In this document: positions 28,101-64,000 of the stretch, piece by piece
Layout of the letters: every line of letters begins with the position of its first letter
Position numbering within the stretch: position 1 is the stretch's first letter
Assembly (NCBI GenBank): GCA_002633005.1
Contig: NMRA01000013.1
Coordinates: 796,995 to 860,994, forward strand
Origin: Phoronis australis
Lineage: Eukaryota > Animalia > Phoronida
Direction of reading: 5' to 3'
DNA length: 64,000 nucleotides
Made by a program: the position numbers and the translations under genes
The notes under the pieces: generated by a model
What the model saw: the letters and a program-made list of their open reading frames with translations, nothing else
Told to the model about the DNA's origin: nothing
Database searches by the model: none

Positions 28101-29004
28101 CATGCACTCTTCATGTTAGATGGGAACTGTCATGAACAAGGAGGACATGCATGATTCCAAAGTATGCATTTTGTAAGCAATAACAAAATTCTAGCCTATT
28201 TTTTGTGGTCTTTGTATTTTCATCAAAACAAGTTCAAATTAGAACTTTGTGCGAGTTGTTCCCCCTGCACAACACCTAGTGACTGTGTTTTGTTTGCTTT
28301 GGTGGGACAGTTTGGCATGATCCACTGTGCATGCAATGTCTCCCTCTGTTGGAAAGTTGTATCAGTGTTTTTTGATTTTATGAAAGCAGGGCTTTTCAAC
28401 TAAGTGTTGCAAGGGGGGGTGGGAAATATTTTATTGAGAAGTGCTTGTCTTCAATGATGGAAACCGCCAGGTTTTTGTCAAATAGTCAAAACCACTTTCT
28501 GTTACTGAATGTGTCTCGACTAGTTCCTGATTCATATTAGAAGCAAATTCTGGACTTTGGAGAGACCAGCGCTTTCTCAAAAATGGATACTGAATTGCAA
28601 AATAACTTTATTCAGTGTGTGTAGGCATTTAGTTGGCAGGGGAATATTGGAGGCAAAAAAAAAATTGTAAGAAAATAATCATGATAACATGCATGTGTGT
28701 GTGAATTGTAGGCTGAGATAAACCCATTTGTTTGTATTTCAGGGAGGAGTTGATTTATCCCAAAATGGAGAAGGCTGTGTGCCGTATGCAGTCAGTGATT
28801 GAGCTGGGCCGTGTTATCAGGGATCGGAAGACCATGCCTGTCAAGGTGGGTGTTGACACGTTGTGGGTGGATGTCATATGTTTGTTGCTGAACCTGCACT
28901 TAATTACTATCTTCTGGTCATGAAAATGAAGCAGCATCAGTAACATTAGCAGCATCAGCAACAGCAGCATTGCTAGTTGTGAAGGCTGTAACAGCCAAGG
29001 CATT

Positions 29005-29043
<39 letters not shown>

Positions 29044-32000
29044 TGCTCCTGCTGCTGCTATTGCAGTTGCATGTGCTGCTGCTGCATTTGTTGCTACTGC
29101 ATCTGCTGCTGCTGCTGGTGGTGGTGGTGGTGGTGGTGGAGATGGTGCTGCTGCTGCTACTGCATTTACCAGTTATAGATTCTTTGTCTACAGGTGTGCT
29201 ATGGAACGGACTGCTGCAATGTGCCATTTCATCTGCTGTAAAGGTGTTAACGAGTTGTGTCTTGATAAACTTTTGCCTGATACCATAGATTGTTAACATT
29301 TGTTTAGAAATCCATTTAAACATCTGCTTATTTCGTCTTCCCCATCATGACGTTCATTGTTGTTTCTTTCTCAGTATCCTCTGAAAGAAGTCGTGGTCAT
29401 TCACCAGGACCAAGACTGTCTAGAAGATGTGAAGACACTGGAAAAGTATATCTTGGAGGTGAGTTGCAATACTGTTTTGTACTGTCATCTATAGATCAGT
29501 CTTGTGATTGGCTCTTGGTGTTTAAATTATGCACAGTGGACCAGGTACAATTCAGGAGAAATTTGTGGCAGCGAGGTAGTGGCTGGAAGTTTGAAGGATG
29601 ACTAGGGCCAACCAGTCGCCATGGGAGACAGGTCATAGATACATCAGCCATCCAGAGCAGTCCTCCCGATGTCTTGCATCTAGACCTGTCATTCAGCTAG
29701 TGTCCTATCGATGTCCGACGTCCCGACTTGTCAGCCAAGTTTACTCTCAATGTATAAACCCGTCCCCCAGTTGTCCTCTCCTCTCCATGTCCAAGCCCCT
29801 TCCCCAGCCATCCTCTCGAAGTTCACAGTCATCTCTCAGACATTTGTCATCCAGACCCATCCTGCAGCCCCATTTCACCGTCTGGTGTCCAGTGCCGTCC
29901 CCTAGCCGTACTCCCAACATCCGTCCACAAAAATTTCATGAACTCCACTGCTGTCGAAAATATGAGTGGACCAAGCTTTTATCACTGTTTCATTCATGAT
30001 GATTATGTACAGAAATGACCTCTGAAACAAGGTGTAAAAGACTGGTCGTCTGATTGGTCAAGTGTGAAAGAGATTTTTTTCATTAGAAATGCACACAGTT
30101 TGCATGATGCAGTTATATAATGCCAATTGTAGATAATGACATAAAACAGAAGGCTGAGTTGTAAGTAAATATTGCTTGATCTTTGCACCATTGACGGAGG
30201 ATTCTGCTCATTTAAAAATTGTAGAAAATGTACAATTATTATATTTTTCTGACTTTGTTGTAGAGGTTATTTCCGCAAAATAGAGTAGATCCTGTGTTCT
30301 GATTGGTCTAAGTGTATGCTCGGACTCTGTCAACAAACATACTTCAGCGTTCTCTCTTTCAATATTTTGTGCCTCATTTCTCTCCTGTTCCTTTCACTTA
30401 GGAACTAAATGTGCGTAAGCTGACGACTACCTCTAACAAAGAAAAATACAATGTTCGTCTTCGCGCCGAGCCTGATCACAGCACTCTTGGCGCTCGCCTC
30501 AAGGGGGAGTTCAAGAAGGTTACAGCCGCCATCAGGGACCTAACGAATGACCAACTCAAAGAATTCGTAGACAGCGGAGAGATAATGGTGGAAGGGTACA
30601 AGCTGGGATCTAAAGATCTTCGATTGATGTACACGTACGATAACACTAATGAAGAGTCTCCTAGTCATTACGAGGCTCACTCAGATAATGAGGTCAGCAT
30701 TTACTTCTTAAGCACGTTATCATACTCGGATCTTTTCAGATTATCGCCTCACATAACCACATGTGGTACGTTCAGACGAAAAAAACATCGCATTGTCTTG
30801 TAATAGCCAGACATCAAAAGCAACTGATCATTTTTGTTTTTGATAACTTCCTCTGTTTCCCTTTCTCGTAAGTTCCCCTTTTGCCGAACTAATTTTTGAG
30901 TGGTCTCACGAAATATCGATTTCCTCTGTATTGTTGTTCGGCAGTTCCAGGTGAGCCGACTCGTGGATTATATGGTCTCACCACCTAGTGACTGATGACG
31001 TCAGCGTAAAAAAGGGTGAACTGTGCTTTGTTTTTTGTGTAACTAAAGATAATCATTAATGAAATGCTTGCCCATCAATGATAATCCAAGCACTGTGTGT
31101 GATGTCTGGGATATTTGTGAAACTAGGATGTTTGTATTGGTAGTTAGCTAGTGCAAGTGGTGTGTCACCGAATCATTAAGTGTCTCAGGATTGTGATGGG
31201 GGTCAGTGGAGATGGGTTATGTTGGTGCGTGTTCCAATCTGAAAACACGCTTTTTGATAGAACTGTGGATCTTTTGAATGTTTTCTGTGAATAGAAACTT
31301 CACTGGTCTCGTACTTGTGACTTACAATTGCTACACAGAATTGATATTTGCGTGTCTGAATTTAAAGGAAGACTGCATGCTTATGCATGCTGAAAAATCT
31401 ACCATGTCAAAGAAACAAGCTTGTTTGCTGGTTACGCGCATAGTACAACACGGTAAAATTTGAGATAATTCGCTTTATTTCAAAACTTTAGTTATTCCTT
31501 ATGGCAAACTCGAAATTAATTAAAATGCGACCTCCCCAGCATAATTTATAGACACAAGTTGTAAGCCTGGGATTGATAGATCAATCTCACTCTAAAGAAG
31601 CTTTTTCTGCTTCATTTTATATTTCAAGACTTCGTAAAGCGCATTTTTCAGCTGAAAAGTATATCCATAAGCATTTATTCTCAAATTATACTCTGTCGAC
31701 ATGCCATCAAATTTTCTCAAAATGCTGTCTTTTGATTACTGAGACTTAAGCAAGAAAAGAGACAGAAGTAGTAAGACTAAGATCTTTGACAAAGTTGTTT
31801 CATTTTATGCAGGTGTTGATCCTACTAGACGTCACCCCTGACCAGAGTATGTTGGACGAGGGCGTGGCCCGTGAGGTCATAAACAGAGTGCAGAAGTTGC
31901 GTAAGAAGGTAGGGTGACTTGCTTCTAATAGGGGGCGTGCAGTGCTGACAACCACCGTGAACCATGAATGGTCTTTGGCTAAAGCGGGCAATGCCCATAA

Positions 32001-41260: not shown

Positions 41261-41323
41261 CTTCCACTTGCATGATTTTGCGTGGTCTTGGGAGATTTTG
41301 CCTTTTTTGCAAAATCCTTACAT
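41261..41323 (-). other. SLMAP: Candidate exon downstream of the tail-anchor exon (alternative C-terminus or spliced 3' UTR)
   Basis: gttgtgttctgtag|ATG TAA...AAG|gtgagt, 63 nt, with strong splice sites. Confidence 0.5.
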
Positions 41324-46000: not shown

Positions 46001-49000
46001 ACATACAAAACAAAGCTTATACACCCAAAAAGCATTGTTCAATGACTACCATCCCCTCACAAACAAGTGAGTAAGCAGGGAAGAGTCTATAAGTTGGGTT
46101 TGTGAGTGGACTTCATTTCGTGAGCCAAGTATTATGAGTGCCGGCACTAGCTTGAGTCAGTGAACTCAGTTTATAGGTCTATCAGCCGAGTTCATAGTTA
46201 AGGAACCATTTTCACTAGTGCATGAGCTGTGTTGTTTGGGTAGTCTGGATCAGACAACATTCAATTTTTATTAAGTAAATCGGGGATCACAAATATTTAA
46301 AATAATTTCTCTTCACATTTTTAGTTGCGCAAAACAGTAAATAGCAAAAACCACAAATAACAAAAATCGCAACAAAATTAGCATCAAAAACAACAGAACA
46401 AGCTGGAAAAGAAAGACAATTTTTGTCATTTAACTCCATTCCAATAGGAGGCTTACAGTCAGTCTTTAATAGTTTATTGCGAGTCCACTCGTGGGCACAG
46501 ACCTCCTGTGAGAGAATGCCTGCAAGAAACAGATACTTTACACTGTTAAGATACAAAAAGAAATAGATACTTTGCAATGTTAAGATATATACAGTAATAT
46601 CAGACATTTTGCAATGTTAAGCACATAAAGAAATATCAGATACTTTACAATGTTAATACTTTGCATAGAGACAAGGACTTCAATGTAATAACAGAAATAT
46701 ATAAATGCCAGCAACTGACAACGACAATGGAATATGTAAAACATCTGAATGAACAAAGTAGTACAGATAAGATATAATTTCTCCGACAATGATAAATTAA
46801 CATTATGCACAGGTTAAATATAACACCATCCAATAACCATTTAACGTATCTATAACAAAATATTACTTTAAACACAAGCCAACAAAATCCTGAAGCAAGT
46901 AATAATAATAAAAACCAACAGCACATGACACATTACGCTCAATTTCATCCAACTTATTGTTGAGGTTTCCACAGTGACATCGCTCATCCTCGAGCTCAGC
47001 CGTTACCGAAACGAGCTGTTCTTTTGTTTGTTCGATACAACTGCTCTTTTGTTGAATTTCTTTGAGTGCTTGATCCAGTTCCAACTGTACATTATGGAGG
47101 GCAGCTGAAATGCCAATGGAAAATGGAAAAAAGTCAAGACATCTTTAATTCCCATGAAAGTAATTCCTTAAGACCAACAACAACACTAACTTCTAATTCT
47201 GAGATAACAGTGAATTATTTCTTGAAGGCAATCATGTAGAATCATAGCAATTAGCGTCCCATTTTATAAAAGGTCATAGATAAGATCTTATCCTACATTT
47301 TTTCCAACACAAAGTTTATGAAGATAATCGGTGAGTGACAACATGGTTTATGTTAGACTTTACCTTTGTTCTAATTTTGTTGTAGTTCAAAGAGCATAGT
47401 GAGATAGTATTCTTGTTCCAGCTTAACACAAATGATGCATTGATACACTACAACAATACACCAGAGAGTGAACAGTTTGTTTGCCCCTAAATATGATTGA
47501 ACACCAATGTCTATCCAAACACTTACACTCCTGGTGGATAGACAAGAAACAAACCAGGTGTGAATTGGCATGCAGTGTATCTCTTAAAAGTTGGCGAATG
47601 CTTGTTTTCTTTTTAGGGCTGTTCCAGCAAAATCTGTATGGGAGGGGGGGGAAGGCACTTTTATTTCGTACCCACCGCCCATATTTTTCATTTATTTCTC
47701 CAACCCATGACCCATAATTTTTTAATTATTTTTAATAGGTTAAAATATAAAATCCAACACTTGCAAACAAATTGCCTCCAGGAGGACCTGTTGAGAACTT
47801 AAATGATTGACAGACAAGAACTAGTTGTCTTGTCCAATATTGTCAAAAACTAAAGTAGCCTGTGAGCAATACTTTTGGCAGCCACCAGGTGTCTCTGTTC
47901 ACCATGTGTCTAAAATTTCAATGAACATTTTTTCAATTATAAGGATCTATGAATCTCAAACTGTCTCCACGAACTCTTTTATACTTCTATCTCAAGTGAA
48001 TATTGGAACTTGTTTAGCTTACTCCTCATACTTTTTATTTAAAAATCATCAATTTTCTTATATGTGTTAAAACCAGTTTTGTGTTGCATAACTTCAATTC
48101 AATAGGACTGCAGACAAACAGTTGACTCAAATCAAGTTGCCCATGACTTGTTTAATGGCTTAGTGAACATATAGCACTCTGTTCACTGGCAATATGGGCT
48201 CTTTTTTTATTGGGATCAACATTAACAGGTCAAAAAATACCATCTATTTTTAATGCATCACTTCTTACAGGAACGACCACCCATAATTTGAGTTTTTTTC
48301 TGAAGACCACCACCCATGAATTTTTATTTCTGCTGCCGTCCCCCCCCTCCCACACGGATTTTACTGGAACAGCCCTTACACTTTTTCATTGGCTTTGGTT
48401 TGGAATTGAAACTTGACAAGACAGAAGAGAGCACCGTTTCCATGTAAAACATACACAAAATTCAGTTTAATTGGAATTTTATCTGTGTCATATTCGCCAA
48501 ACTCGGGTCCAACAACCTAAATAAATTTCACAACTCCCTCCTGCATTGCTCAGTACGTTCAATAAGCAATCTGCTGACATTGGGTTAAGTACTGTACATT
48601 GTGTCTGTGCCAGCTTGGCTAGGGTCGACTGCAGCTCCATCTTTCTTTCCTCCAGAGAGTTCTCAGTCAGTAATAAACTCTTAGCTGTGGTAGAGTGACT
48701 ATCTCCTTCGGCCTCAAGATCCACTGCAAATAACACAACATAACCTGACAATACATTACAACACCGCCTAATTTTTACTGGAAACACTAACCAAGCAAAA
48801 GGGTACCCAACCATATTCAAGCTTGGTCAATGTTTTTCAATTATTTTATAACCTACCTCATTCAAGTTTGCACACTAAGCTCAAATGATCTTGCAAATTT
48901 TTCCAATTCGAACGGAGACGTCACTTCTCCAGCATAGAGGATATCACTCAGAAATGTCAGTGAACGATATGTTCAATCGGGAATAAGAAACTTATGATAT

Positions 49001-52000
49001 CAATATTCAAGTTTTATACAACATACCGGTTTCAATCTTTACGTGCTACGAAAAAAAATGAGATATACAAAACATAAGAATTAAACTTTGATATCTTTGA
49101 AGGAATTTCTTTAAGAATCAAAATTTCCTTCTAAACTGGTGAGTATTAAAATCCTAGAATATTAAAACCGTGCTTAATATCAAGGCCAAAACTCGTTCTT
49201 ACGTTCCAATTGGTTAATTTGTCTGAGCAAGGCATCGTTCTTACGTTCCAATTGGTTAATTTGTCTGAGCAAGGCATCGTTCTTACGTTCCAATTGGTTA
49301 ATTTGTCTGAGCAAGGCATCGTTCTTACGTTCCAATTGGTTAATTTGTCTGAGCAAGGCATCGTTCTTACGTTCCAATTGGTTAATTTGTCTGAGCAAGG
49401 CATCGTTCTTACGTTCCAATTGGTTAATTTGTCTGAGCAAGGCATCGTTCTTACGTTCCAATTGGTTAATTTGTCTGAGCAAGGCATCGTTCTTACGTTC
49501 CAATTGGTTAATTTGTCTGAGCAAGGCATCGTTCTTACGTTCCAATTGGTTAATTTGTCTGAGCAAGGCATCGTTCTTACGTTCCAATTGGTTAATTTGT
49601 CTGAGCAAGGCATCGTTCTTACGTTCCAATTGGTTAATTTGTCTGAGCAAGGCATCGTTCTTACGTTCCAATTGGTTAATTTGTCTGAGCAAGGCATCGT
49701 TCTTACGTTCCAATTGGTTAATTTGTCTGAGCAAGGCATCGTTCTTACGTTCCAATTGGTTAATTTGTCTGAGNGTCTCATTCACTGCTGCTGATTCTGC
49801 TCTAGCGTTGGACAGACACTCTTTAGTTTCACTATGAGCAGACTTCTCAACTTCCAGTCGTTCTGCAGTAAGAGAACAAACACGATCACTACTAATGGCG
49901 TCAGGTCAAATGATCACTGACAACCACGGTTGTTATATGCAAAAAACTGAAAGGCAAACATGACCAAAACCAGAGGCTGCACAATGACAACAAAATAGCA
50001 TTTGACCATCATGACACCTTATTTTGCAACAGCAAAAATGACTGAAAATTACTATTATGATGCCAAAACTCTAATTACCGAAAGGCTTAAGCCAACCTAT
50101 AAACTTTCCAGTTAATTTCCCATAATTCTCGGTCATGAGGGAGGCCACTTTAGTTATGAATTCGACTTTCGCCTAGCAGTCATGACTGGGAATTCCAAGT
50201 AATCTTGTCTTTCAACTTTAAGCATACAATGTACAATAAACCATTTGTTTGATCTCCTAATGGACTCGACAGTTTTCCAATTTCCAGACTTCCTACTTAT
50301 TAACCAAAAGTTCAAGAAAAATTATTACTGTTCTGGAATGCCATCTATTGTATAATTAGCTATTGAGATACCTCTGATCTGTCACAAGCACACCTGGAGT
50401 TTGTTTATAAAAAGTGACTGAAGACTTCAATACTAATTTGTTCTTACACTCCCACTTCCCAGGTACAGATTACAGAATAAAGATATAGCAACGTAATTAT
50501 TAGTACCATCAGTCTAGAAATAATGTGTAGAAATCATCTTAGTAACTAGTCATTATGAATATACTCTACGAGACTACATTAAGAGAGATTCTATTATTTT
50601 TCAGAAATAGTTGTGTGGAGCGTAAGATCAAATTTCTTACTCAAGTCTCAAGTCACCTTTCATAGAACAGATCATAGAACAGCAGAAGGAATGGAAACTG
50701 TAGTCCAGATTACATTCACTTGTTTATCATTTGTGACTGTTAAAGTTTCATGTACCGCAATTTCACAAAAACACCATTAAAAACACTGCCACTAACTATG
50801 AAAAATCCCAGACACAATTTTAAAGCATTTTTATCAAAGTTTTGATACAGAAAACTTGGTGAATGCTGTTGTAAGGACTTGACAGTGGCTAGAAACTTAG
50901 ATATTTCAAGTAAAAGACATCATTTTAATTAGGGGTACACGTAACCTTAATGACATATGAGGGATTTCACTATCTAATGATGCAACAGATGGCATTAGAG
51001 ACCTGTCAGACAACTGTCAAACATCTTACTTTCAAACAGAGACAGTTTTGTAACCGCTATTTCATGATCCTCGGTGGCTCTCTCCACTTCCTTGGTAGAC
51101 AACTCCAGTCGTTCCTTAGTCCTGGCATGGCAGGTTTGTTCTTCAGATAAAAGGGCTGAAAGTGGAACGCAAACTGAACAGAGAAACTTGACTCAAGATT
51201 GAACAGAGTATAATCTAAGTTGATAGATAAATCTGAATTTTGATGACAGAAAATGGCGCAAACACTTAGCAGAAACAAAATTTATTTGAAAATTCTGTTT
51301 GCACACATATTAAGTTGATGCCCTTGTCCCAGGAAATGCCATTTCACAGTATTTTTCTAGTTACAGAGGCTATCATTTTACATTATCATATTCATTCAAT
51401 CTAATTGTAAATCTAATCCAGCTAGAATGAACCAGTTTCAAGGGGTACTTCAAGAGAATTACATCCTCAAAATATACAGTAACTAAACTGTGGATGGTTA
51501 ACTTCAATCACAACAACCAACAGACGTGCTAATCTCTATCAACCAGGGCTTGGAATGACCAATGGCGAAAAACGCAGAAATTTTTACGGCCCGTAACATG
51601 CGTGCAACCAGCCTTGAAAAAGTCGGTGTGGACCTTTTGCCGACCAAAATCAAGGACTAAAAAAAAAGAAAAAGAAAAGAAAAAAAAACGGTACCACCTC
51701 CGGAAGCGTGCGTCTGCCTGTCTTAGCTCGTCTGCCACTCCCACCTCCAAACATTTTTTGGCTACAGAGTCGTAGTATTTGTCACCGCGGTTTACAGTCA
51801 CACGAGCCGCCATGCCGCCATTGAGGAAATCCACCATGCTATCCCAGATGCCCCGGCAATGTTGACAATTTACGTTCCTCCGAAACATTAAGAGCAACTT
51901 CCGCTTTTCGAGGTGAAAGTCGGCGGCAACGCGGCGGTAAGAAAGACATTTGCCGCGGAAATTTTGTATCAAATCCGATTTTTTTTACGCGGAAATATAA

Positions 52001-55000
52001 TAAAATACGCGGAAAGAACACTTGAAAAAAGTGGAAATCCGCGTTTCCGCGGAAAATTCCAAGCCCTGATCAACCCATCCCAGACTTTGGTTCTACTTCG
52101 ATTCGCTCCTGTCAACCACTTGAAGCCCATTCCTAACAGGAATTGGGTGCACATCGAGGATCATATCATGGCCACAAAGAGTCTCACAAAATGAGAAAAA
52201 CATAAAGGGGAAATTGGTACATTACAAAAATATTTAAGTGAACAGACAGGGGGAGGGGGGGAACCGGGACTCCTTTGGATCCGCACCTGGGGGTGGCCCC
52301 CATGATGAAAATTAATGATGAATGCATTTGTGACATTTAATTCTTTAAAGCAGGAACATTACCCAGAGACTAGCAAATGATATATGAACATAAATGGACT
52401 AATTAACACACAACCCCCCAAAACATTTAACTGACACCAATTAAAAAGATTAGCCACAGATGGGACTTAAAAATAGATAAGTTTTCCACCCCAGTCATTG
52501 ACTGCATTCCATACATTGGGTAGCCATGACAATGCAAATCTGCCAAGTTCAAACTGTGCGGTGTTTACCTTTGATGAACAACTCTCAAACTCCTTACCTT
52601 GAGCGGTAGCCAGATTAGTCATGGCCGCCACCAGTTCATCATTCAAGTCGTCAACAACAGCAGAGACATTCTTCAGTTGGATCTGAGTGTCACAGTGACT
52701 TGATGTCTCCTCTTCCAACAGAGCTGTTGATACAAACAGCCACAAGTTCAGTCAATAGGGGTACACTAACATTGAGAAATCTAGTCTATTACACAATGGT
52801 AATGGTGATTATTTTGGGCATTTACTTACCTGCAGTTTTCCTTCAAAAATCAATATTCTGGTATAGCTGTGGACACGTTCAGCAGCAGTCATTTCACTAG
52901 TGCATGCTAGCTAGACAGGTCATGTGATCTTGTATCGCTTTCGTAAGATTTTGTGAGATCTCGCCTAACTCAATTCATAAGATACTAGACTTACTAATTA
53001 AAAGAATTATACAGCTGCGATATCTTCACACTTCTCAAATGCTTTTCAATTTGTTTCCAAGACATCAAACAGCAGCTAAAGTAGTGCTTATGCAGGACAC
53101 ACACTAGAGAGATTTGCTCAGCAATCCAATTCCCTAAATCCGTAACTGAGGTGTGCACAGAGTACTCCCTCGAAGTGTTGAGGAGAATAACCAATGCGCC
53201 AATACCAAATATAGGTTCACAGGCCCAACACGTGGAAAATTTATGTATATCTGCCCATGAGCCTACTTTTGGAGTATTAATTATCATTTAACAAGGTTTG
53301 CTGGGCTTCCCAAACTGAACGGCATAATAGGAAAGTAATAGACAAGTCTACTCTGTTGCACTATTTCATAAGATCAGTACTATGTACCTGAAAACAAATG
53401 GTTCAGTCCAACACCCCAATTTCACTAATAAGCGAGGAAGGCACATACACAAAAAATTGCAGAATCCGACAGTTGTCCTAAAGCAGAATTTTGACAAACC
53501 CACTTACTTTCCGAGTCAGACAGTTGAATGTTCAAATTATCCAATTCAGCTTTTACTCTTTCATATTCCGCTCTGACACAGCTTAACTGGAGCTGCGAGT
53601 TGTTGTTGGCAGTTCTTTCATCTTGCAACAAAGCTGAAACAACCACAGACAAAGCTGGCAGTCAAAGACTCAACATGCAAACTTTAATCATGGGTAAAAA
53701 AGATTATCAAACACAGTGATTTTCCAAACAATTGTTGGAATATCACATTTTTAATTATAGGTAAATTCACTGCTGGTGAAAGGCAGAGACTGGAATGCTG
53801 TCTAAGGTGTTAATACGACTTCAGCATCTAGTCAGGTGTAGATGTACAAACATGCTACATTTAAACGGGCACTTGACTATTGAGTATTTTAACGTATATT
53901 AGTGAGAAGTAGCAAAAAATCTGACAGGAACTTTTGTATTGAAAAAGTTCAAGAAAAAGGCCCAGAATGGCATTTCAAATTATGAATGCAGTAAGCATGC
54001 AAGATACGGACAAACTGCAAATAAAAACACATAAAAGTGACAAAATTGGTAAAGGTATAAAACATTTTAAAAACACCATATATTTCAGGCCCAAAACCCT
54101 CTACAGTGGTGGGTAAAACCACTGTGGAAGGGATGGAGCCTAAAACGTATGGTGTTTTTTAAAGGGTTTTAATTTATACCATTATGTAGCAGATTTATTG
54201 TATGTGCGTGTTTTTATTCTCATTTCGTCTGAAATTTGTGTATAATCTCAGTGTACTATGATTGCCAAGCAAACTATTCACTGTAATAAACATATTTCCA
54301 AAATATGTCAACGAACAAAACTTGAAGAGTTTTAAAGGTAAACAATAATTGAAACACAAAGTTATCCAAAACCATTACTTTCCAACTCCAGAATTCTTTT
54401 CCTGGTCATGTCTAGTTGGGCTCTCACATCGTAAAGCCAAGCTATTAGAATACAAAAATCACGGCTTGTAACACATTGATACCATTACAGATGTCTATGT
54501 TTCTCATTGTATCATTATGATACAGGCAGGGAGACTTTTGCTTTACAGTTGGCTTTTGCCCAAATCATTACCAGGACGGCAAACAAAAACAAGAAAGTAG
54601 GTTCAAATTTGAACAAAAAACAAAGTGTTGTTTGATAATGAAGATTCCCGAAAATCACACAAACTGTGTTGTTGTTTTTTTCAAAAAATCAATGATGCCC
54701 AAAGACAAAAAACACCCCGATTCTGAAAGAGAGGAGCTCATATCAACATAGTATGAATCAGATTTCCTGATATACCCTACCAAATATTTTTCATTTAGCC
54801 TTAATAAACGCCCACCTTCAACTTAAAAGCCCACATGGAATTTTCAACAGGTTACACACATTCTATTGTACTCAGCTTCGTGCCCACCACCAAATTTTCG
54901 TGTTCTCCAATTTACGTGCCCAGGGCTTTTCAACGGACTAGTTTGGTAAACAAGCCAAACAAAACTAGACTCGTAAGTTTCTTTGTCACGACAGCATACT

Positions 55001-58000
55001 CATTAACATTCAGTTGATAATAACAAACAATCTGGGATGGAACAGAAGGGCCGGCTTGCCAGCCAAATGACTTAACTCTGAAACAGTTTTCACTCATAAA
55101 TGCTCTGAATGCTTTGCATGACAACAAAATGAATTTGTGTGAAGGTGCAAAAAATTGCAAAACCAACTTTGTAGGAGCAAATGGACTACTTTTGTGTTTT
55201 CAAACTGTTCAACTGATGAAAATACAGTCATAAGATACAAATAGTAGTTTCTTATCACACCTTAGCTAAATATTGAAGTGAAAACTGTCACCTAATTTCC
55301 ATTAATTTAGCTTTGTAAAATTTCCTTCTTACGTCAATACGTCGATGAAGCCGAACAAATTTCGACAAAATTAATAAACTTTTTGTTATTTTTGTTTGAA
55401 AACAACCACACTAGCTCTTCAATTTCCACTTGTCTAAAAAGCATACTCACTCTCCATTTCCTTTAGGTTGTTGACAGCCAGGTCATGAGCGGTTTCTTCC
55501 ACCTTGAGTTTGTCTTCAAATAGCACACCAATAAACAAGTGGTCAAGTCCCAAATGCATCGCCCGCTTTAGTATGTAACATTCAGAACAAAACAAAACAA
55601 AAAACAAAACAAGACGTTTTGCAAGATAAGATGACGCTGAAAGGAAACAATCGTTTGAAACTCTGAAATTATTAAAAGCAGTAACTTTGTGAATTAACAA
55701 AACTGAAAACAACAGGAAGTCTTTGCAAAATTGCATGTACATATACAAGAAGGGATTGAGTTGTGGCATCGTAAAGTCAACCAAACAACACACAAGGTCC
55801 CCTGATGGTTATATTTCTGTAGACATTCATTCATTTACTTTCACCAGTAGATTTTCATCAATTCAGAGAAGTTCAATGTTGTTCAACTGCGGCGGCCATT
55901 TTGATGGTGCCCACCAGACATTTGAAAATTATTTTGAAAATTCCATAACTTATCAGTTAAAACAGCATCAAACGGAAATAACTTTCAACTAGATTGGTTT
56001 GAGGGCAACTTCGTTTCAAGAAGTTTTTAACTGAAAAGAAGTGCCTTTAAGATAATATACTTAATATGTGACAACATGTTCAGTACTTCACAGAAAAAAC
56101 AGGAAATTCCTCCATGTTCATACAATTTTGCTAAAACCCCGGATAACAAAATGTTAAAACAATATGATTCCATTTGAAGAAAACATGTGGTTACAATAAA
56201 TGTACCTGTTTGTGTAACGTCAGAAAAAACTTTCATTTGCTGCAGCATGCTGCGATATATTGAGGTGTATTCAATACAACTTGTGATGGCAAACAGCAGC
56301 ATGCAAAAACAACATTATTCAATCTGCTTCCATAGTTTAATACACTTCTCAAAAGCAAAATAAAACCAATCAAACGATGTGAAATTCATTGACATGAATT
56401 TGTATAAAGTATGAAGAAGAAATCAAGTTGACGTTTTCTTCAAATGGAAACAAACATTACGGAAACTGGAAGAAGCGTCCTACTTTCAGCCTCGTACATC
56501 CTCTTGACCGCGTCATCCAAAGAGACCTGCATGTCTTCCAGCTGTTCTGAAAGTTCTGAAAAACCCATGTTGAGATTGCCAGAGCAAAGGATAACAAAAA
56601 TGCATCGGGATGCCAACTACACAGGCTGCGCATAATGAGGGAATTTGCAGAGGTCAAAGGGCACAGAATCTCACCTTGGTTCTTGGCCACCTGATGTTCC
56701 ATTTCTTTCCGAGCACTCGACAGTTCTTCGGACTTTTTCGTTTCTGTATTTTTGAGTTGTGTCTGGATATTGCCGAGTTCAACTGAAAAACAAAAACCTT
56801 TAATATCAAAACTGCAATCAAATGTAAGTTTAAGCTAGTTTATGTAAACTGTAAAATACACCAATAAGAAAGTGCAGGCAATCAATACATAAAATTAAGA
56901 TAGATGGCAGCACTTCAGAATATGCAAAAGAGGGACAAATGAAAAAAAAATCGCATCAGATACTTAATACAAGAAAAGAAGTACTCTTCACGGAGTGAAC
57001 AATTCTGATTTAAAAATTTGTGAACAGCCACGAACAGAGATTTCAAAACAAGCTAAAGTTGTCAGTTCTATATGGATACTACAATCATTTACTCAGTGAG
57101 AAAGAACGAGTCAGTTGAAGATATAACGTCGAAAACATCCCAAACACAAACTGTGTTCAAATAGAATACAAGAAACAGCAAATGTTTAATGTGAGCGTAT
57201 ACAGCTGTACATTGTGACAGGTTCTAATAAGCAATTAAAGTTACAACACAAACCTTGCAGTTTACTATTCTCATTCTGAGCCTGGTCTAGCAAATCTTCA
57301 GTAATGGACATTTGAGCTTTAAATAGACAACATGCAGATATCATGCATCAGGAACAACAGCAACAATGACAACGACGACAACAACCTGACAACATGGTCA
57401 AAAGGCATATTAACAACATCCAATTAAAACTACAAACATCCAAGTCAAAAAGGATGACGTAATAACCTGAACATTCATACAGTCAAAATCATATTAAATT
57501 ACGGGTTCAACTACAAAAGAATTGCATAATATAATGCATCACTAATACAAGACAGGGTAAAAACCTACAACAGTCAGGGCAAAATTATATCCAAGAACTT
57601 TTCAGTTACAAGTTTTCAGAAGAATTTAAATGGAGAAGTCTAAAAAATCCCAAATCACAAAACACTAAAGAGCTCTTAATTGATCTGGGAAGATAACCAT
57701 ATCACCACAGTTCTGTCTAGCCTGCCATCAACAAACTTGACTATAATTAGACCTGTGCTTTTTGAATTTTCTTCCTGTTGTACCTTGCATGAAGTGCAAA
57801 TAAGTGAAAAGCTCAATGTTACAAGAAAACAACAAGAATTTGTAAGAAACGAAAATGTTATGAACCCACGATATAACACTAAAAAGGAGTTGAGCAACTG
57901 CCTTCTGTAAAAACATAGCAATGTAAAATTGGTCTCAATTTGTTCACAATTCCACTTAGAAGTGATTTCTGAGATTGGTAAGAAGTGACAGATTGCTGTT

Positions 58001-61000
58001 TCTTAACACAAGACTCAACGAATCTGGTGGACAAGCTCACCACATTATGCACTGCCTAAAAGCAGCAAGACTGATGCACCAACTAACTCCATCTAGTGTG
58101 CAAACATTAAACACGCCGACATTAAGCAGTATCAGAAATTGCTTCCAATGCGAGAATGGAATAAATTGAGATCAACTTCATAATTACAACTGGTGTTTGT
58201 CAAAAAGTAGAAGCATAATGGCTTGATAAATGTCAGATTCAATCGTTTGTGACGTTGGAAAGAAAGGTTTAGTCAAATTGTGAAACGACATGACAGCATG
58301 CACGTGAAACATGCAGTAACAAAAATGTGAAAGGCGCTAATGAGCAATTTATTCTCAATGGGTAGTTACATTGATTCAGAATTCATGCAGACCTAACAGT
58401 GTGTTCGATACCTTTTCCATTGCGCGGGGGAACTGTGGGTTGCAAGATAACGCATTAGAAGAAGAGAGAGAAATGAGAGCAAATGAGAGAAATCAGTGAA
58501 CAACATGGAGTTCACTAGGTGGCGCTAGTGGAAAAACGAGCCCACATGAAGAAATGCATGGATTTAGGTAGTCTCGTCTAACCCCTATTGTACGAATCTT
58601 TTAGTGCTGGCGACTAACTTTCTGTTCTAAATCTGCTCATGTGAGAAGAAATGTACTTTCTTCACTAGCATCAACCAGTGAATATTGAGTTGCTCATAGG
58701 ACCACCAGATTGTTTTATTATATTACAGGCTTCATCAATTTGTTATAACATACTTTATCATAAAAACCATGACATTTGAATCAATACAAGATGTCGGAAC
58801 AAACAAAGGAAAAACAAAACTAACATAGGACTTTTAATCAAAGCCACAGTCAGCGCCATCTTTTGGTTCACATTTTGGATTGGAACCCCTCGTTTAGGTT
58901 CTACAAGATGGTGACTCACCGGTCCTAACATCATGGACCGAACAGAGGCCCATGATGTTCAAAGAGGAAGTAGCATTTTTGCCAACGCATTTGAACTTTT
59001 CAATTTCGTATTGACCCAATTAGCACTGTCGGGCACTTTAAAGCAACAACTTGGAAACGTGTTAGTGTTAAACAGTAACCGTTTTTGTAATATCTTACAG
59101 CTCATGTTGGACAGCTTAGCTATAGTTTCCTGATGTGAGATGATCTCGAGTTTCAGTATCTCTGTAGAATGAAATACCTTAGTCCATGAATGACAGTCAA
59201 TCGTATCAAGGAGGGCAATTTACGAAACAAAATCGAGGTCGAGGGAAAAAAAACTTCTGCCAAAACAGCACAAAACAGGAACTTCTTTGACAAAAGAATA
59301 ACAATTGAGATTCCAGCTAGCATTTAAAGTAACAGCTTCACAGTTTTCGATAACATCTGAAACGTGACTTTCCACCAATTCTAAGGGGAGATCTTAAGTA
59401 AGGTAGCTGTCAACACAGCCTTCTTCAAAGGGAAATAGTCCACAGATGTGATCCGATTGGTTAAACAGGCCCATCGGAATTGTAATGCATCGTGATAAAA
59501 ACTTTGAAGAATAAAAAATATAACTTGTGAGGAAAGAATCATGTCTCTAACAAAAAGAATGGTAAACGACTGAGAAAGTCCAAACAGTTTCAGCAGGAAG
59601 AAAACTGCCTAACAATGTATTTGATAGACACCCAGTAATATACTGCATTCTGTCCACAAAGCAAGAGTATCGGTTTCATAACTCTGAAATGAGTAAACAA
59701 AATCCAAGTGATTTAAATTTTACATTCTCCAATCCTGGTGAAGGTAATCAGAGATGCGTTTCATTGACCTGTCCAAAATTTATGCTCGAAAATTCCCGAT
59801 AAGCAAAATGACGGACATTTTCAGTGACTCCAATGCAGAAACTTCATAAAATAAAATGAAACCAATAACGCCTTTCACAAAAGATTTTTATTTTTTATAT
59901 CCCATGATAGGATGACAAAATACCTCAGTGCTAAACAGGATAGACGTCCAACAAAAAGAACATTCTCAGACTTTTACCATGGATTCAGGGCACAAGCTGG
60001 GATAGGCAGAAAGCACATCGCGTGTAGGAAAACAGACGCAAACGTGAGCTAGACTTTAGTAATCGTAGGGCTAGTTTCATACCTTGATGTTTTTCTGTCT
60101 GTTTGTCCATGTCTCCCTGAAGGCGTTGCGACGACTCTCGTTCTCGTTCTTTCGCCGTGATCTCGTTTTCGAGCTCCTGTTTGACTTTGAGCAGTTCCGC
60201 TGCAATAAAAATTTTCACTTGACAATGCCAACTTGCTTTGTGCATACAAATCACTATCTCTCTACCTCTCTGTGTCACAGACAACAATATTGCTCCCAAC
60301 TTTACATTATACAGAACTTCTGCATTCAGGTAAGTTTAAGAAAAGTACTTAGAAAGTAAAAGATAAAGCTACATGCAGTGCCACCTTTGGGACGTATTGC
60401 GAGGTGAAACCTTTTGTTTTGGTACTTTACTACGACGCGATAGCGTTCGTGATTACACATAACACCACAGGCAGAATGGAGTTTATTGATTGCTTCAACA
60501 AGATTCACTGGCACTAACACGATTAATTCAAGTGTGAACTTCAACTTGACCTAATTAGCATCGTATGGGACTTTAAGGTATAGAAAAGATACACAAAAAA
60601 AATAAAAGATACTAGACAGAAGTCTTTAGAATTGTGAGAGCACAAAAGCCACTTCACTTTGACCTAATTTCTAATTTTGGTGATAAAGACGGGCAGAGTT
60701 AGCAAAGACTAAATGCAGTTACATTCATTCATGAACACGTAATGGCGTCGGACTTCTTGAACATCCCGCCATACAAAATGGAGATTTGGCAGTATGTGAA
60801 TAGCAATGAATTTAAAAAATGTGAAATTGTACTGCCTCAGAATCTTCGTCCAAGTTAATGCAAATTGCACAATGACATTGCCCGTTTGGACACAAAATAC
60901 TCTACTGCCATCTAGCGGTAAAACAAATTTTAACATGTTGGTGCTATATCAGAAAATGACCATTAACGGAAGATTTTACAATGTGTTAAATGTTGAAATG

Positions 61001-63970
61001 TTGCCAAGTAACCTCTCCATCCATTTTCCATCACAGAAGTAGTTCCATTAAGCACAAAATAACCAACTACATCAAATTAAAAGATTCACAATAATCCAAA
61101 AATTAGTCATGTTTCACGAAAATTAAATCAAAATCCGTTCTACACCAGGCATAACTACTAAACAAAGCAACTTAAGATTATCACCATAAAGTTCTTCAGG
61201 TGGTTAAAGTTAACAATTCAAAGCGGCCAGAAACCTGCCTTCTATCAAAAACACAAACTTTTAATGTAGCCCACTGGTCTCAACTTGTTCCTTACTTACG
61301 ACAGACAAAAAGCCATTTTTAGGCATCGTAATAACAAATTGTTCTGAAAACCAGACATCCCCTTTAACTTCAATAAGGACCAGCTGAGAAAAGTTTCATA
61401 ATATCAAGTAATTTAAACAAAAGACAATTTTTGGACATAAGGCAGGTTTACAGCATCTTTAATCTTCTCGTTGCTTAACCGACATCATAATGGTTATGAA
61501 CAAGCAGCTCTCTCCTCCCTTCTTTACTAGCCTTAAATGAAATTACCTGACAGCGTTTGCACCTGAGTTTCGCTATTGTGCAAGAGGTCCCGCGTCTTCT
61601 CGAGTTCGGCTAGGAACAGAAGCAGACAGAGACATGCACTAGCAGCTAGGTACAACATGCAACACAGTGTGGCGTCGACGTGCAAAGTACAAGTCCGAGG
61701 TACGGTACTCCAAGCATGGGAGACACATAACATAGAGTACACGCCAAAAATAATAAGACAAAATTCCATTTCACCACATCATGGTGGACGAGACTCGGTC
61801 AAAACTCAGCTACTCTGATGGTCAATTCTGCTTGCACTCGGCTGCATTGACAGGGAATTCCCCTTGAGCTTGGCAGTCCTGACAAGGAACTCCGCTTGCA
61901 CGATGGGGGATTCCATGGCCATATTGTCCCATTATTTGTGGCGAATACAGTACAATAGGGGGAATCTCGAGTTGGATCAAATTCTGAGCTATCCTATGAT
62001 GTACAGTCAACTATTTCAGTCTTACATACTCATGAAAACATATAACAAGTGAGCGTGTATAAATTTGCTTAGCTCACAAATTCACTTTCATTTTGTTTTT
62101 AAATACAGCAAGATAGAGTTCATAGTAATTAAACATGATAATATCAAACTGAACGACTCACAACCAGAAGATTTGCCGTCGCTAACTGGATATATTCCAT
62201 TTTGAAGTTACAGATTTCCCTTCGACCAACTTAGTGCTGTGTGCGACTTAAGAAATATATGTAACTTTGTAAACATTGAGAATTTATGTACTTTCTAAAT
62301 GGGATTGTACAGACATTCATCAGGATGAGATACTCCAAAATACTCCAGAATTTGATCCAACAAACTAGACAGTGAAAACAATCAGTGAAGCAAACCGCTA
62401 GGAAAGAAACGGATGATTACATATCTTGAGACTGTATATTTTATGTCAACATTAATAACAAATAACATACATTCCACCTTCATGTAATGCAGTAAAGGGT
62501 AGTGCGGTATATCACAGACAACAAAAATCAAAGCACAGTCAATACACAACAAAAGCTCACCAACTTCAGAGAAAAATAAATGACCTTTTTTCATTTTTCA
62601 AAGCATTCTTACGTCATTTCGAATACGCACAATTCCCTAAAACATTGTGTAGTGGTAGCTATGATATGGAACCAAAAGTTGAAAAAGTATTTAATTTGAA
62701 GTAACATGCCTTTGATGAAAATTTGAAATATATAATTTCATGTCTGCCATATTGAGCAATAAATTGGTGACATGTTAATGTATCTATTAATATTGCCATA
62801 AACCGGGCTTATGTGAAAAACTACCCAAGACCACTTACCACTTTAGAACCAGGCTTGGGAGAAACTAACAGTTTGTCACTGCTTGAGACTAGGCTTAAGA
62901 ATTTGACTTGACGTGCCCAGCCTGATTTAAGCGTGACTTATACAAGCTGTCAGTTGTTCCAGAGCCCAGAAATCAATTCTCATCTTTGTAAAAACAAGTT
63001 GAGACCAGTTCTATGATGGTAGGTAGGCTCATTAGTAATTTGACAAACGACGGATGTATACCATTATCAAGCAGCGAAGAAAAACAGAACAAAATGCAAC
63101 GAGTGAATGAACAAACAGTATGTCTCACAGTCTCTTTCCCGCCAATTCTTTACTGCCACCTGTTGGGCTTCGTTCATTTGGTCAAGCAGCTCTTAAAGCA
63201 AGACAAACACAGACATGCATAAACGAATTGAAGGAAGGGGCTTTACTAATCTGGACCCATTATTCCTCACACCAAAGTTTGGACTCGGGCAGATATTCTA
63301 AGTTCACCAACTCCTATCCATATAATGGAGTCAGTTGTAAGCACACGCACAGTGGTTTTCAAACAAAAGCAACAAAAATCTTAACGTCAAAGTAATCCAA
63401 TATTGTCAGTTACAGCACACAGAAGAAAAGTGATGGCAATTAACAAAATTTAATAGCTTAATCTTCTGTTCCGATATTGGAAAATTTATGACAACAAGAA
63501 ATTTTTGTCATTTTTTGAAAATTGCTTTACATGGTACTTAGCACTGCTCAAAAAGCAGTTCCTATGATTTCGAAACTAATCTAAGGATCTCACACTTAGA
63601 TAAATGAACAAAACTGTACAAAGAAACTATTAGTTGATTTTGATACTTAGCTTTTATCAAGACTTGTCGTCTTACACCTGACTTGGGAGGATGAACAGAA
63701 AATCAATTTTTACTAACACGAGTCCAAACTTCAGTAGAAGTCATAAAATTTGAAAAGGAACATATATGTACACCAAACAGGCAACGACTACAAAAGACAG
63801 AAACTTTTGGCAATGGCACTGAAGCAAGGTCATGACCTCTGACCTACCTCTGAAACACTGAATCAGATTGAGCCTGAATTTGAAAAACAACTTACCTTTG
63901 TTCTCTGTCGCTTCTCGCACTCTCGCCTCCGAAACATCTTCTAATTTTTTCTTCACCTGAGCTAATTGGT
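42918..63970 (-). CDS. SLMAP: SLMAP-like tail-anchored coiled-coil protein, 3' portion; N-terminus (expected FHA domain) lies right of the window
   Basis: 20 phase-compatible GT-AG exons encoding heptad-rich helix. The final exons EFVALKNECAGLRRRIQNLEADMK / NAQLTSDYSRLQESYNELE / C-terminal TM ICSMVPLVALMFALLLAFYPALSELTATVD* resemble the human SLMAP C-terminus as recalled (EWNALETECHSLKREN..., LELTSDLSILQ..., tail anchor). Gene name is by recalled similarity only. Confidence 0.8.
43558..43692 (-). CDS. SLMAP: SLMAP-like exon (135 nt, phase 0-0)
   Basis: LQTANQDITTWREKCAECKEEITLLKSDLDEMGMEYTVLADRSRT. Confidence 0.9.
44616..44775 (-). CDS. SLMAP: SLMAP-like exon (160 nt, phase 2-0)
   Basis: TRKENAQLTSDYSRLQESYNELEALKERLESQEEAWRLNLTDAQKEADITKQQ. 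Confidence 0.9.
44785..44903. repeat. 19-bp minisatellite, about 6 copies
   Basis: Unit acatacagcacagtgcata. Confidence 0.9.
45372..45447 (-). CDS. SLMAP: SLMAP-like exon (76 nt, phase 1-2)
   Basis: EFVALKNECAGLRRRIQNLEADMK. Confidence 0.9.
46524..46690. repeat. Degenerate ~34-36-bp minisatellite, 4-5 copies
   Basis: Unit approximately aagaaa(ta)cagatactttrcaatgttaagatacata. Confidence 0.7.
46937..47104 (-). CDS. SLMAP: SLMAP-like rod exon, 168 nt, phase 1-1
   Basis: ALHNVQLELDQALKEIQQKSSCIEQTKEQLVSVTAELEDERCHCGNLNNKLDEIE; donor C|gtaatg. Confidence 0.8.
47616..48375. mobile_element. MITE with GGG termini and TTA target-site duplication (PIF/Harbinger- or Zator-like)
   Basis: tta|gggctgttccagcaaaatctgtatgggaggggggg ... 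ccccccctcccacacggatttttactggaacagccc|tta. Confidence 0.85.
48598..48723 (-). CDS. SLMAP: SLMAP-like rod exon, 126 nt, phase 1-1
   Basis: DLEAEGDSHSTTAKSLLLTENSLEERKMELQSTLAKLAQTQ; weak donor T|gtacag. Confidence 0.75.
49193..49773 (-). repeat. Perfect 42-bp tandem array (~13.8 units), each unit containing the exon end and a 5' splice site
   Basis: Minus-strand unit CTC AGA CAA ATT AAC CAA TTG GAA C|GT AAG AAC GAT GCC TTG; 14 donors with exon ends at 49203+42k (k=0-13). Confidence 0.95.
49749..49862 (-). CDS. SLMAP: SLMAP-like rod exon with variable 3' end (shortest visible form; extendable in frame to 49203)
   Basis: ttactgcag|AA RLEVEKSAHSETKECLSNARAESAAVNET [N at 49774] LRQINQLE C|gtaaga; same family as the 126-nt exons. 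Confidence 0.8.
51030..51155 (-). CDS. SLMAP: SLMAP-like rod exon, 126 nt, phase 1-1
   Basis: LLSEEQTCHARTKERLELSTKEVERATEDHEIAVTKLSLFE; donor A|gtaaga. Confidence 0.85.
51544..52068. mobile_element. hAT-like MITE
   Basis: 13-bp TIRs cagggcttggaat / attccaagccctg; atcaac on both flanks; repeated subterminal cgcggaaa motifs. Confidence 0.8.
52598..52723 (-). CDS. SLMAP: SLMAP-like rod exon, 126 nt, phase 1-1
   Basis: LLEEETSSHCDTQIQLKNVSAVVDDLNDELVAAMTNLATAQ; donor G|gtaagg. Confidence 0.85.
53508..53633 (-). CDS. SLMAP: SLMAP-like rod exon, 126 nt, phase 1-1
   Basis: LLQDERTANNNSQLQLSCVRAEYERVKAELDNLNIQLSDSE; donor A|gtaagt. Confidence 0.85.
54054..54180. repeat. Degenerate palindromic element
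   Basis: aaaaacaccata...ctacagtggt-gggtaaa-accactgtgg...tatggtgttttt arms. Confidence 0.7.
54379..54441 (-). CDS. SLMAP: SLMAP-like rod exon, 63 nt, phase 1-1
   Basis: WLYDVRAQLDMTRKRILELE; donor A|gtaatg. Confidence 0.8.
55451..55513 (-). CDS. SLMAP: SLMAP-like rod exon, 63 nt, phase 1-1
   Basis: KLKVEETAHDLAVNNLKEME; donor A|gtgagt. Confidence 0.8.
56484..56546 (-). CDS. SLMAP: SLMAP-like rod exon, 63 nt, phase 1-1
   Basis: QLEDMQVSLDDAVKRMYEAE; donor A|gtagga. Confidence 0.8.
56675..56782 (-). CDS. SLMAP: SLMAP-like rod exon, 108 nt, phase 1-1
   Basis: ELGNIQTQLKNTETKKSEELSSARKEMEHQVAKNQ; donor G|gtgaga. Confidence 0.85.
57254..57316 (-). CDS. SLMAP: SLMAP-like rod exon, 63 nt, phase 1-1
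   Basis: QMSITEDLLDQAQNENSKLQ; donor G|gtttgt. Confidence 0.75.
58412..58432 (-). CDS. SLMAP: Candidate 21-nt microexon of the SLMAP-like gene
   Basis: Long pyrimidine tract, ctaat branch-like motif, TGC motifs, cacag|TT CCC CCG CGC AAT GGA AAA G|gtatcg; phase 1-1. Confidence 0.55.
59099..59161 (-). CDS. SLMAP: SLMAP-like rod exon, 63 nt, phase 1-1
   Basis: ILKLEIISHQETIAKLSNMS; donor T|gtaaga. Confidence 0.8.
60083..60199 (-). CDS. SLMAP: SLMAP-like rod exon, 117 nt, phase 1-1
   Basis: ELLKVKQELENEITAKERERESSQRLQGDMDKQTEKHQ; donor G|gtatga. Confidence 0.88.
61547..61609 (-). CDS. SLMAP: SLMAP-like rod exon, 63 nt, phase 1-1
   Basis: ELEKTRDLLHNSETQVQTLS; donor G|gtaatt. Confidence 0.83.
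63129..63191 (-). CDS. SLMAP: SLMAP-like rod exon, 63 nt, phase 1-1
   Basis: LLDQMNEAQQVAVKNWRERD; donor T|gtgaga. Confidence 0.75.
63896..63970 (-). CDS. SLMAP: SLMAP-like rod exon, 75 nt, phase 1-1
   Basis: QLAQVKKKLEDVSEARVREATENK; donor G|gtaagt. Confidence 0.87.
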
Positions 63971-64000
63971 CTGTAACGGAACAGAACAAAATATAATTGT

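Follow-up and report, generated by a model that had tools for sequence, protein, structure and literature searches.

An expanded array of heptad-register exons in the coiled-coil rod of a Phoronis australis SLMAP gene

The window, a 64,000-nucleotide stretch of Phoronis australis DNA, carries on its minus strand the 3' part of an SLMAP gene, in which the coiled-coil rod is drawn out over a long array of phase-1 exons (Table 1). The heptad-length exons of this array all begin at one coiled-coil position. By comparison with the proteins of relatives, the array is an expansion of a feature common to three phyla (molluscs, a nemertean and a brachiopod), and the rod is far longer here. The explanation that we favour, with modest confidence, is an SLMAP rod of 17 phase-1, in-register exons that arose as tandem duplicates and whose splicing proceeds in blocks that differ between samples; the protein would then hold its head at varying distances from its membrane anchor.

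The identification of the gene depends on its conserved 3' end. C1, C2 and C4 are matched in order by all ten lophotrochozoan SLMAPs compared and C3 by nine of them, with identities of 72-75% to C2 for the Tubulanus and Solemya proteins and of 43-57% to C4 across the ten relatives. The tail anchor, a feature of SLMAP, is present in C4 ahead of the stop (best 19-residue hydropathy 2.5), as is the long central coiled-coil rod, seen as a heptad pattern over E1-E18. The SLMAPs of relatives carry an N-terminal FHA domain and a SIKE1-binding CC1 segment; we assume that this gene has the same N-terminus and that it sits past the end of the window. The upstream conserved anchor sequence was not found within the window, where the best match upstream of C1 reached only E 0.11. 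Mammalian SLMAP is described in the available parts of four papers as a tail-anchored coiled-coil protein with many isoforms, whose FHA domain binds MST kinases and whose residues 167-226 bind SIKE1 (PMC2712456, PMC10932035, PMC9343278, PMC6323126). Since these binding sites are N-terminal and the anchor is C-terminal, the head and the anchor lie on either side of the variable rod.

Two further observations concern the 3' end. A 63-nt AG/GT candidate exon with a strong donor (AAG/gtgagt) lies downstream of the tail-anchor exon C4, at 41261-41323 on the minus strand; in a Mya isoform the anchor exon is swapped for three residues, so alternative last exons exist in relatives. Facing the SLMAP gene tail to tail are ORF pieces of a plus-strand gene at about 12900-30800, which we take from their motifs to resemble cytoplasmic isoleucyl-tRNA synthetase, and about 52 copies of TGC (76% matches) lie inside that gene region, at 29008-29163.

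Table 1. Rod exons, conserved 3' exons and associated features, with positions counted from the first letter of the window.
Feature	Position	Strand	Description	Basis
E1	63896..63970	-	75 nt, phase 1-1; 25 codons = 2 heptads + 11	RNA depth in E1 bin
E2	63129..63191	-	63 nt	AG/GT, open phase 1-1 frame
Transcribed stretch	61650..63550	-	continuously transcribed around and after E2; ends at bin resolution	mean RNA depth
E3	61547..61609	-	63 nt	AG/GT, phase 1-1, register
E4	60083..60199	-	117 nt; 39 codons = 4 heptads + 11	AG/GT, phase 1-1
E5	59099..59161	-	63 nt, His-core (u6-like) unit	AG/GT, unit scoring
E6	58412..58432	-	21-nt candidate encoding PPRNGK, unsupported	AG/GT, phase 1-1 only
E7	57254..57316	-	63 nt	AG/GT, phase 1-1, RNA depth
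E8	56675..56782	-	108 nt; 36 codons = 2 heptads + 22	AG/GT, phase 1-1
E9	56484..56546	-	63 nt; second acceptor at 56555 would make 72 nt	AG/GT
E10	55451..55513	-	63 nt, u6-like	AG/GT, unit scoring
E11	54379..54441	-	63 nt	AG/GT, phase 1-1, RNA depth
E12	53508..53633	-	126 nt	AG/GT, phase 1-1
E13	52598..52723	-	126 nt, first half u6-like	AG/GT, unit scoring
E14	51030..51155	-	126 nt, first half u6-like	AG/GT, unit scoring
E15	49203..49862	-	88 unique nt and an N at 49774, followed by copies of the 42-nt unit, each with a donor; likely 126 nt in the real genome	sequence
42-nt repeat	49193..49773	.	42-nt unit, 13.8 perfect copies, begins at the single N	tandem-repeat analysis
E16	48598..48723	-	126 nt, weak donor AAT/gtacag	AG/GT, phase 1-1
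E17	46937..47104	-	168 nt	AG/GT, phase 1-1, register
E18	46457..46519	-	63 nt, u6-like; lies beyond the originally predicted array	AG/GT, unit scoring
C1	45372..45447	-	conserved SLMAP exon, 76 nt, phase 1-2	relatives' matches
C2	44616..44775	-	conserved SLMAP exon, 160 nt	relatives' matches
C3	43558..43692	-	SLMAP exon, 135 nt	relatives' matches
C4	42918..43016	-	last coding exon: tail anchor and stop	matches and hydropathy

All 18 exons E1-E18 have AG before, GT after, an open frame and phase 1 at both ends, and the introns among them measure 0.1-1.5 kb, the repeat-filled E15 region excepted. The 17 exons of the original prediction (16 and a bracketed one of 21 nt) were recovered on the minus strand with their lengths, splice sites and open phase 1-1 frames, apart from E15. 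Without E6 and E15, 15 exons remain, of which 12 have a length divisible by 21 nt (p = 2e-8 in a binomial test against 1/7, for exons picked by hand). In a blind exon scan, which used generic, untrained splice weights and recovered part of the exons, multiples of 21 were weakly enriched, at 6/19 candidates in the gene versus 1/5, 0/7 and 3/12 in three controls. The register is stronger evidence than either the length counts or the blind scan. Apart from E6, every exon (17 of 17) has Leu or Met as its second residue; across the 14 heptad exons the heptad position of residue 2 is hydrophobic in 48 of 60 cases, and none of 20000 random rotations reached the observed register score. Each of the non-heptad exons E1, E4 and E8 consists of whole heptads with one or two additional steps of 11 residues, an irregularity that coiled coils tolerate, and the exon after each of them is back in register.

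Splice-site composition is less informative. All three non-heptad exons end AAG/gt, and 10 of 13 heptad exons have a base other than G at donor position -1, as originally predicted, but this base cannot be read as a sign of skipping, since the conserved exon C1 itself ends AAC/gt and duplicates inherit the base. An argument from RBFOX sites was dropped, TGCATG occurring 14 times versus 12.3 per 18.5 kb in the neighbouring gene. The introns hold a 19-mer repeated 6.3 times just upstream of C2 (44785-44903), a 36-mer repeated 3.5 times just upstream of E18 (46530-46656) and, between E13 and E14, an element at 51544-52068 with terminal inverted repeats CAGGGCTTGGAA and a 6-bp direct repeat, ATCAAC, at its flanks. 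This element has very high DNA depth and has RNA depth in all three RNA runs, and looks like a high-copy MITE.

E15 was originally given an open-ended length of 126+42n nt, an extension that we could not confirm. In the assembly the exon runs for 114 nt to its first donor, across the single N at 49774. A 497-nt DNA contig aligns through its positions 1-419 to 49775-50193, and the next DNA contig begins at 50164; given this 30-base overlap, the 497-nt contig starts at 50193 and 78 of its letters run past the N. We would expect a genuine 42-nt array to break that contig within about 30 letters in a graph assembly built on 31-letter words. The count of records running over an end was one, whereas the artefact reading needs two, and the contig letters beyond the N were not displayed. 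Taken as 126 nt, the exon brings its last residues into register by inspection. On this indirect argument, E15 is likely to be 126 nt in the real genome and the 42-nt array an assembly artefact.

The length of the rod stands out against that of relatives. A search with the Tubulanus protein gave 120 lophotrochozoan or unassigned SLMAPs among the matches listed, to which a cluster look-up added isoforms. Both conserved anchor sequences were present in 96 of 121 proteins, the 25 without a pattern match being left out, and the distance between them was 194-339 residues in 95 of the 96; E1-E18 alone encode 534-541 residues. The remaining protein, P0027, has 62. P0027 and P0183 (ENA proteins of 686 aa) are SLMAPs from which the variable rod is entirely missing, either because this is the shortest natural version of the protein or because the gene models are incomplete. 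Relatives have about seven tandem 21-residue units directly upstream of their match to C1, in a number that varies among species down to none in P0027; here the 14 heptad-multiple exons make up 62 heptads, and the rod comprises about 25 unit-lengths against zero to about seven elsewhere. Comparing exon numbers with related species, as proposed with the original prediction, gave over twice as many units in Phoronis australis as relatives appear to have, and the design proved to be an older lophotrochozoan feature, expanded in this species, and not a new one. None of 22 SLMAP-like proteins longer than 1201 residues was lophotrochozoan, although a blank in such a search is weak evidence.

The likely source of the added units can be named. 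When the window units were scored against the unit classes of relatives, E5, E10, E18, the first halves of E13-E16 and the second halves of E14 and E16 scored best with the class u6, making nine u6-like units with His at a core position; in relatives u6 sits just upstream of C1. The His-core motif is also present in unrelated, apparently prokaryotic repeat proteins, so the case for a common origin draws on position, phase, length and motif taken together. Aligned in register, 126-nt exons are identical at 8-12 of 41 residues (20-29%) and at 37-64 of 126 bases (29-51%), low identities which indicate that the duplications are old. BLASTP of the single exons E1-E18 against 121 relatives gave no strong match (best E 7e-4), and a profile of E12-E15 had six matches among 1.84 billion representatives, none of them SLMAP. 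Within E12-E18, His at core position 9 recurs with a nearby Cys across several units, and could confer metal, pH or redox sensitivity.

Skipping of such units is visible in the database isoforms of relatives. Isoforms that differ by the loss of 21n-residue units occur in 16 of the 21 species for which at least two isoforms were compared (14 molluscs, Lineus and Lingula), and were not found in those of Ylistrum, Physella, Octopus vulgaris, Mya and Tubulanus. The nine isoforms of Haliotis rufescens cover six of the eight possible combinations of u4-u6. Where junctions share the same upstream context, the first base of the junction codon is shared in 37 of 39 contexts and the first two bases in 6 of 39, which fits a codon split in phase 1; a test on junctions with the same downstream context was noisy (28/42, many contexts one residue off), and the upstream test was used instead. 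Examples among the RefSeq models are the Haliotis rufescens P0040 set, Lineus XP_064631870-80, Lingula XP_013404757/60 and Liolophura XP_064607249-57. These isoforms are automatic gene models, whose combinations were perhaps enumerated from short reads, and their exon boundaries were deduced from the protein sequences.

For Phoronis australis, three RNA runs (X7, X8 and X9; 18-19% of each) and one DNA run were placed on 49775-64000. Over the 20 bins between 52150 and 61649, RNA depth follows exon bases in X7 (Spearman 0.70, p = 0.0006) and in X8 (0.59, p = 0.006), and X9 has nearly no depth. X7 has depth in every exon-bearing bin from E1 to E15 except that of E6, mostly implying 5-16x per exon. 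This result, with depth tracking E1-E15 without E6 in two of three runs, speaks against the possibility raised with the original prediction that most of the exons are not transcribed. The E6 bin has no RNA depth in any of the three runs, 21 nt being possibly too short for read placement. A bin without a listed exon, 55950-56424, has a depth of 1.31 in X7, which may come from transcripts running on past the E9 donor or from an exon not yet recognised.

Inclusion may differ between samples. The X8/X7 depth ratio is 0.30 in the bins of E4 and E7-E12 versus 1.15 in those of E13-E15, with a library ratio of 0.89; E4 is covered at 60131 by 10 reads in X7 and 2 in X8, and E8 at 56712-56730 by 13-14 and 6. 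The Fisher p for this shift is 0.0001, 0.003 or 0.06, depending on whether 75, 150 or 300 bases are counted per independent fragment. The RNA differs from the window sequence at several exon positions, and allele differences could bias the placement of reads on short exons. The 15 joint alignments that are listed (31 more are not), in a set dominated by DNA-contig and dispersed-repeat rows, contain no junction between exons. We take the E4/E7-E12 depth shift, based on few reads, as a hint of block skipping in this species. The combinatorial rod of the original prediction thus gains support from unit skipping in the database isoforms of relatives, but in Phoronis australis itself from a depth hint only.

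That skipping preserves both frame and register, as originally claimed, follows from the symmetric phase and the shared register, but with exceptions: a stop (TAA or TAG) arises at the split codon in five of 171 forward joins (E2-E5, E2-E9, E2-E15, E5-E9 and E5-E15), leaving 118,720 of 131,072 exon subsets with an open frame. In the mechanism that we propose, an ancestral 63-nt cassette exon would have been tandemly duplicated, with duplication of the His-core unit u6, and pairs of units would have fused into the 126-nt exons; the exons of the array would then be spliced in sample-dependent blocks. With a coiled-coil rise of 0.1485 nm per residue, each 63-nt exon would lengthen a parallel dimer by about 3.1 nm and the whole array by up to about 80 nm, providing a variable spacer that would separate the tail anchor from the head that binds kinases and SIKE1, with rod length as the putative regulated function. 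SLMAP CC1, in the available account of its structure, crystallises as a parallel homodimer (PMC6323126). If the rod pairs in the same way, two chains of different length made in one cell would not fit each other, and coordinated block splicing per cell type is therefore likelier than free combination.

Several other explanations must be weighed against sample-dependent block splicing. Symmetric, in-register duplicates are harmless, and might nearly always be included, giving simply a longer rod. Such constitutive elongation agrees with the X7 depth over all exon bins of E1-E15 but that of E6, with the lack of a skipping junction among the joint alignments listed and with the five of 21 relatives without a unit skip, and the duplication mechanism alone would explain symmetry and register; we nonetheless consider it unlikely, given that 16 of 21 relatives, belonging to three phyla, skip the homologous units and that the E4, E7-E12 block shifts about fourfold against E13-E15 between runs. 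The skipped units might instead matter through the surface that they show to partners or to the second chain, with length as a side effect. The age and divergence of the units (29-51% base identity) and the differing residues of their a/d core (His, Thr, Cys, Asn) would suit a code for binding or pairing, and the V2 exon of kinectin is described in the available part of one paper as recruiting a specific partner (PMC12768868). Strict length and register, little sequence conservation and free change in unit number fit a spacer better, and the accessible portions of the literature consulted name no partner for the rod region, so that we judge this second explanation quite unlikely.

A further alternative concerns the transcribed stretch around and after E2, which is about 1.5-1.9 kb long, lies on the strand of the exons and has a mean depth of 4.9-11.9 in X7 and X8 and of 0-0.12 in X9. 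Its depth equals or exceeds that of the rod exons, and the main regulated event might be an alternative 3' end after E2: most of the array would then be dropped together, and the full-length rod would be the minority form. A transcript continuing past the E2 donor would gain 20 mostly hydrophobic residues (17-residue hydropathy mean 1.86) before a double stop, the stop ending at about 63067, and mammalian SLMAP has two alternative tail anchors according to the available text (PMC2712456). We find hints here of a short SLMAP isoform with its own tail. Of 336 open stretches in this part of the window, however, 23 have ends as hydrophobic as this tail by chance, AATAAA is absent from 61600-63900, where ATTAAA occurs solely at 62690 and 63449, and no sharp start or end is listed for the stretch. 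The alternative 3' end is a candidate alongside a retained intron or a nested RNA, which fit equally, as does an internal promoter of the kind reported in the accessible part of PMC9343278, and as the main event it seems very improbable to us.

Sample-dependent block splicing of the rod could also be read more boldly. Blocks of the 17 modules, or a short E2 form with its own anchor, might act as a splice-programmed ruler that sets the distance of a STRIPAK/Hippo head from a few to about 80 nm, in an extreme case of an overlooked, lophotrochozoan-wide mechanism; we regard this version as rather doubtful. Because most deletions upset the register, it is difficult to test whether the length of a coiled-coil scaffold is regulated as such. 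The SLMAP family offers a natural in-register length series, with zero to about seven units in molluscs, nemerteans and brachiopods and about 25 here. Should skipping be absent in Phoronis australis, the array would still be a neat example of a rod lengthened through the duplication of exons.

Comparison with known systems places the array within a wider set of variable coiled coils. A paper on an invertebrate SLMAP exon array was not found in the literature searched, which excludes most subscription papers, while the array itself is visible in public gene models. CD23, for which a paper search found nothing, and tropomyosin were set aside as precedents. In mammalian SLMAP, as far as the available texts describe it, variation comes from alternative tail anchors and internal promoters, and a heptad-exon array is not described there. 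Chicken BG genes resemble the present gene in building a coiled-coil tail from numerous exons of heptad size, in which the first codon is split; copy number varies, and the tail is truncated by intron read-through (PMC5938342, accessible part). They differ in having 21-nt exons and in encoding Ig-V type I membrane proteins of an unrelated family, whereas the protein here is tail-anchored and built from 63/126-nt exons. Membership of the BG/butyrophilin family, with its 21-nt exons behind an internal transmembrane segment, was rejected, exons of 63-168 nt here preceding a C-terminal anchor, and the likeness is one of analogy. Kinectin (KTN1), a long coiled-coil protein anchored in the ER, also has alternative exons, V1-V5, whose use depends on cell type and stage (PMC12768868, available part). 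In that account its anchor is N-terminal, its variable exons number five, partner switching is shown and the exons are not described as in-register duplicates; kinectin identity was rejected for the present gene, with its C-terminal anchor and SLMAP sequence, leaving again an analogy.

The SLMAP-like proteins P0135-P0139 of the ctenophore Bolinopsis microptera, which are named myosin-2 heavy chain-like, are long as well (1547-1643 aa), and their isoforms differ by repeat-like rod segments. Those segments, of 50, 96 and 49 residues, are mostly not heptad multiples, pointing to a separate ctenophore expansion. The closest counterparts are the SLMAPs of molluscs, a nemertean and a brachiopod, which share with Phoronis australis the gene end, the position of the array, the 21-residue phase-1 units and the single register, and in which units u4-u7 are present or absent between isoforms. 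Their rods hold about seven units in 194-339 residues, whereas the rod of Phoronis australis extends over at least 534 residues and includes compound exons of 126 and 168 nt.
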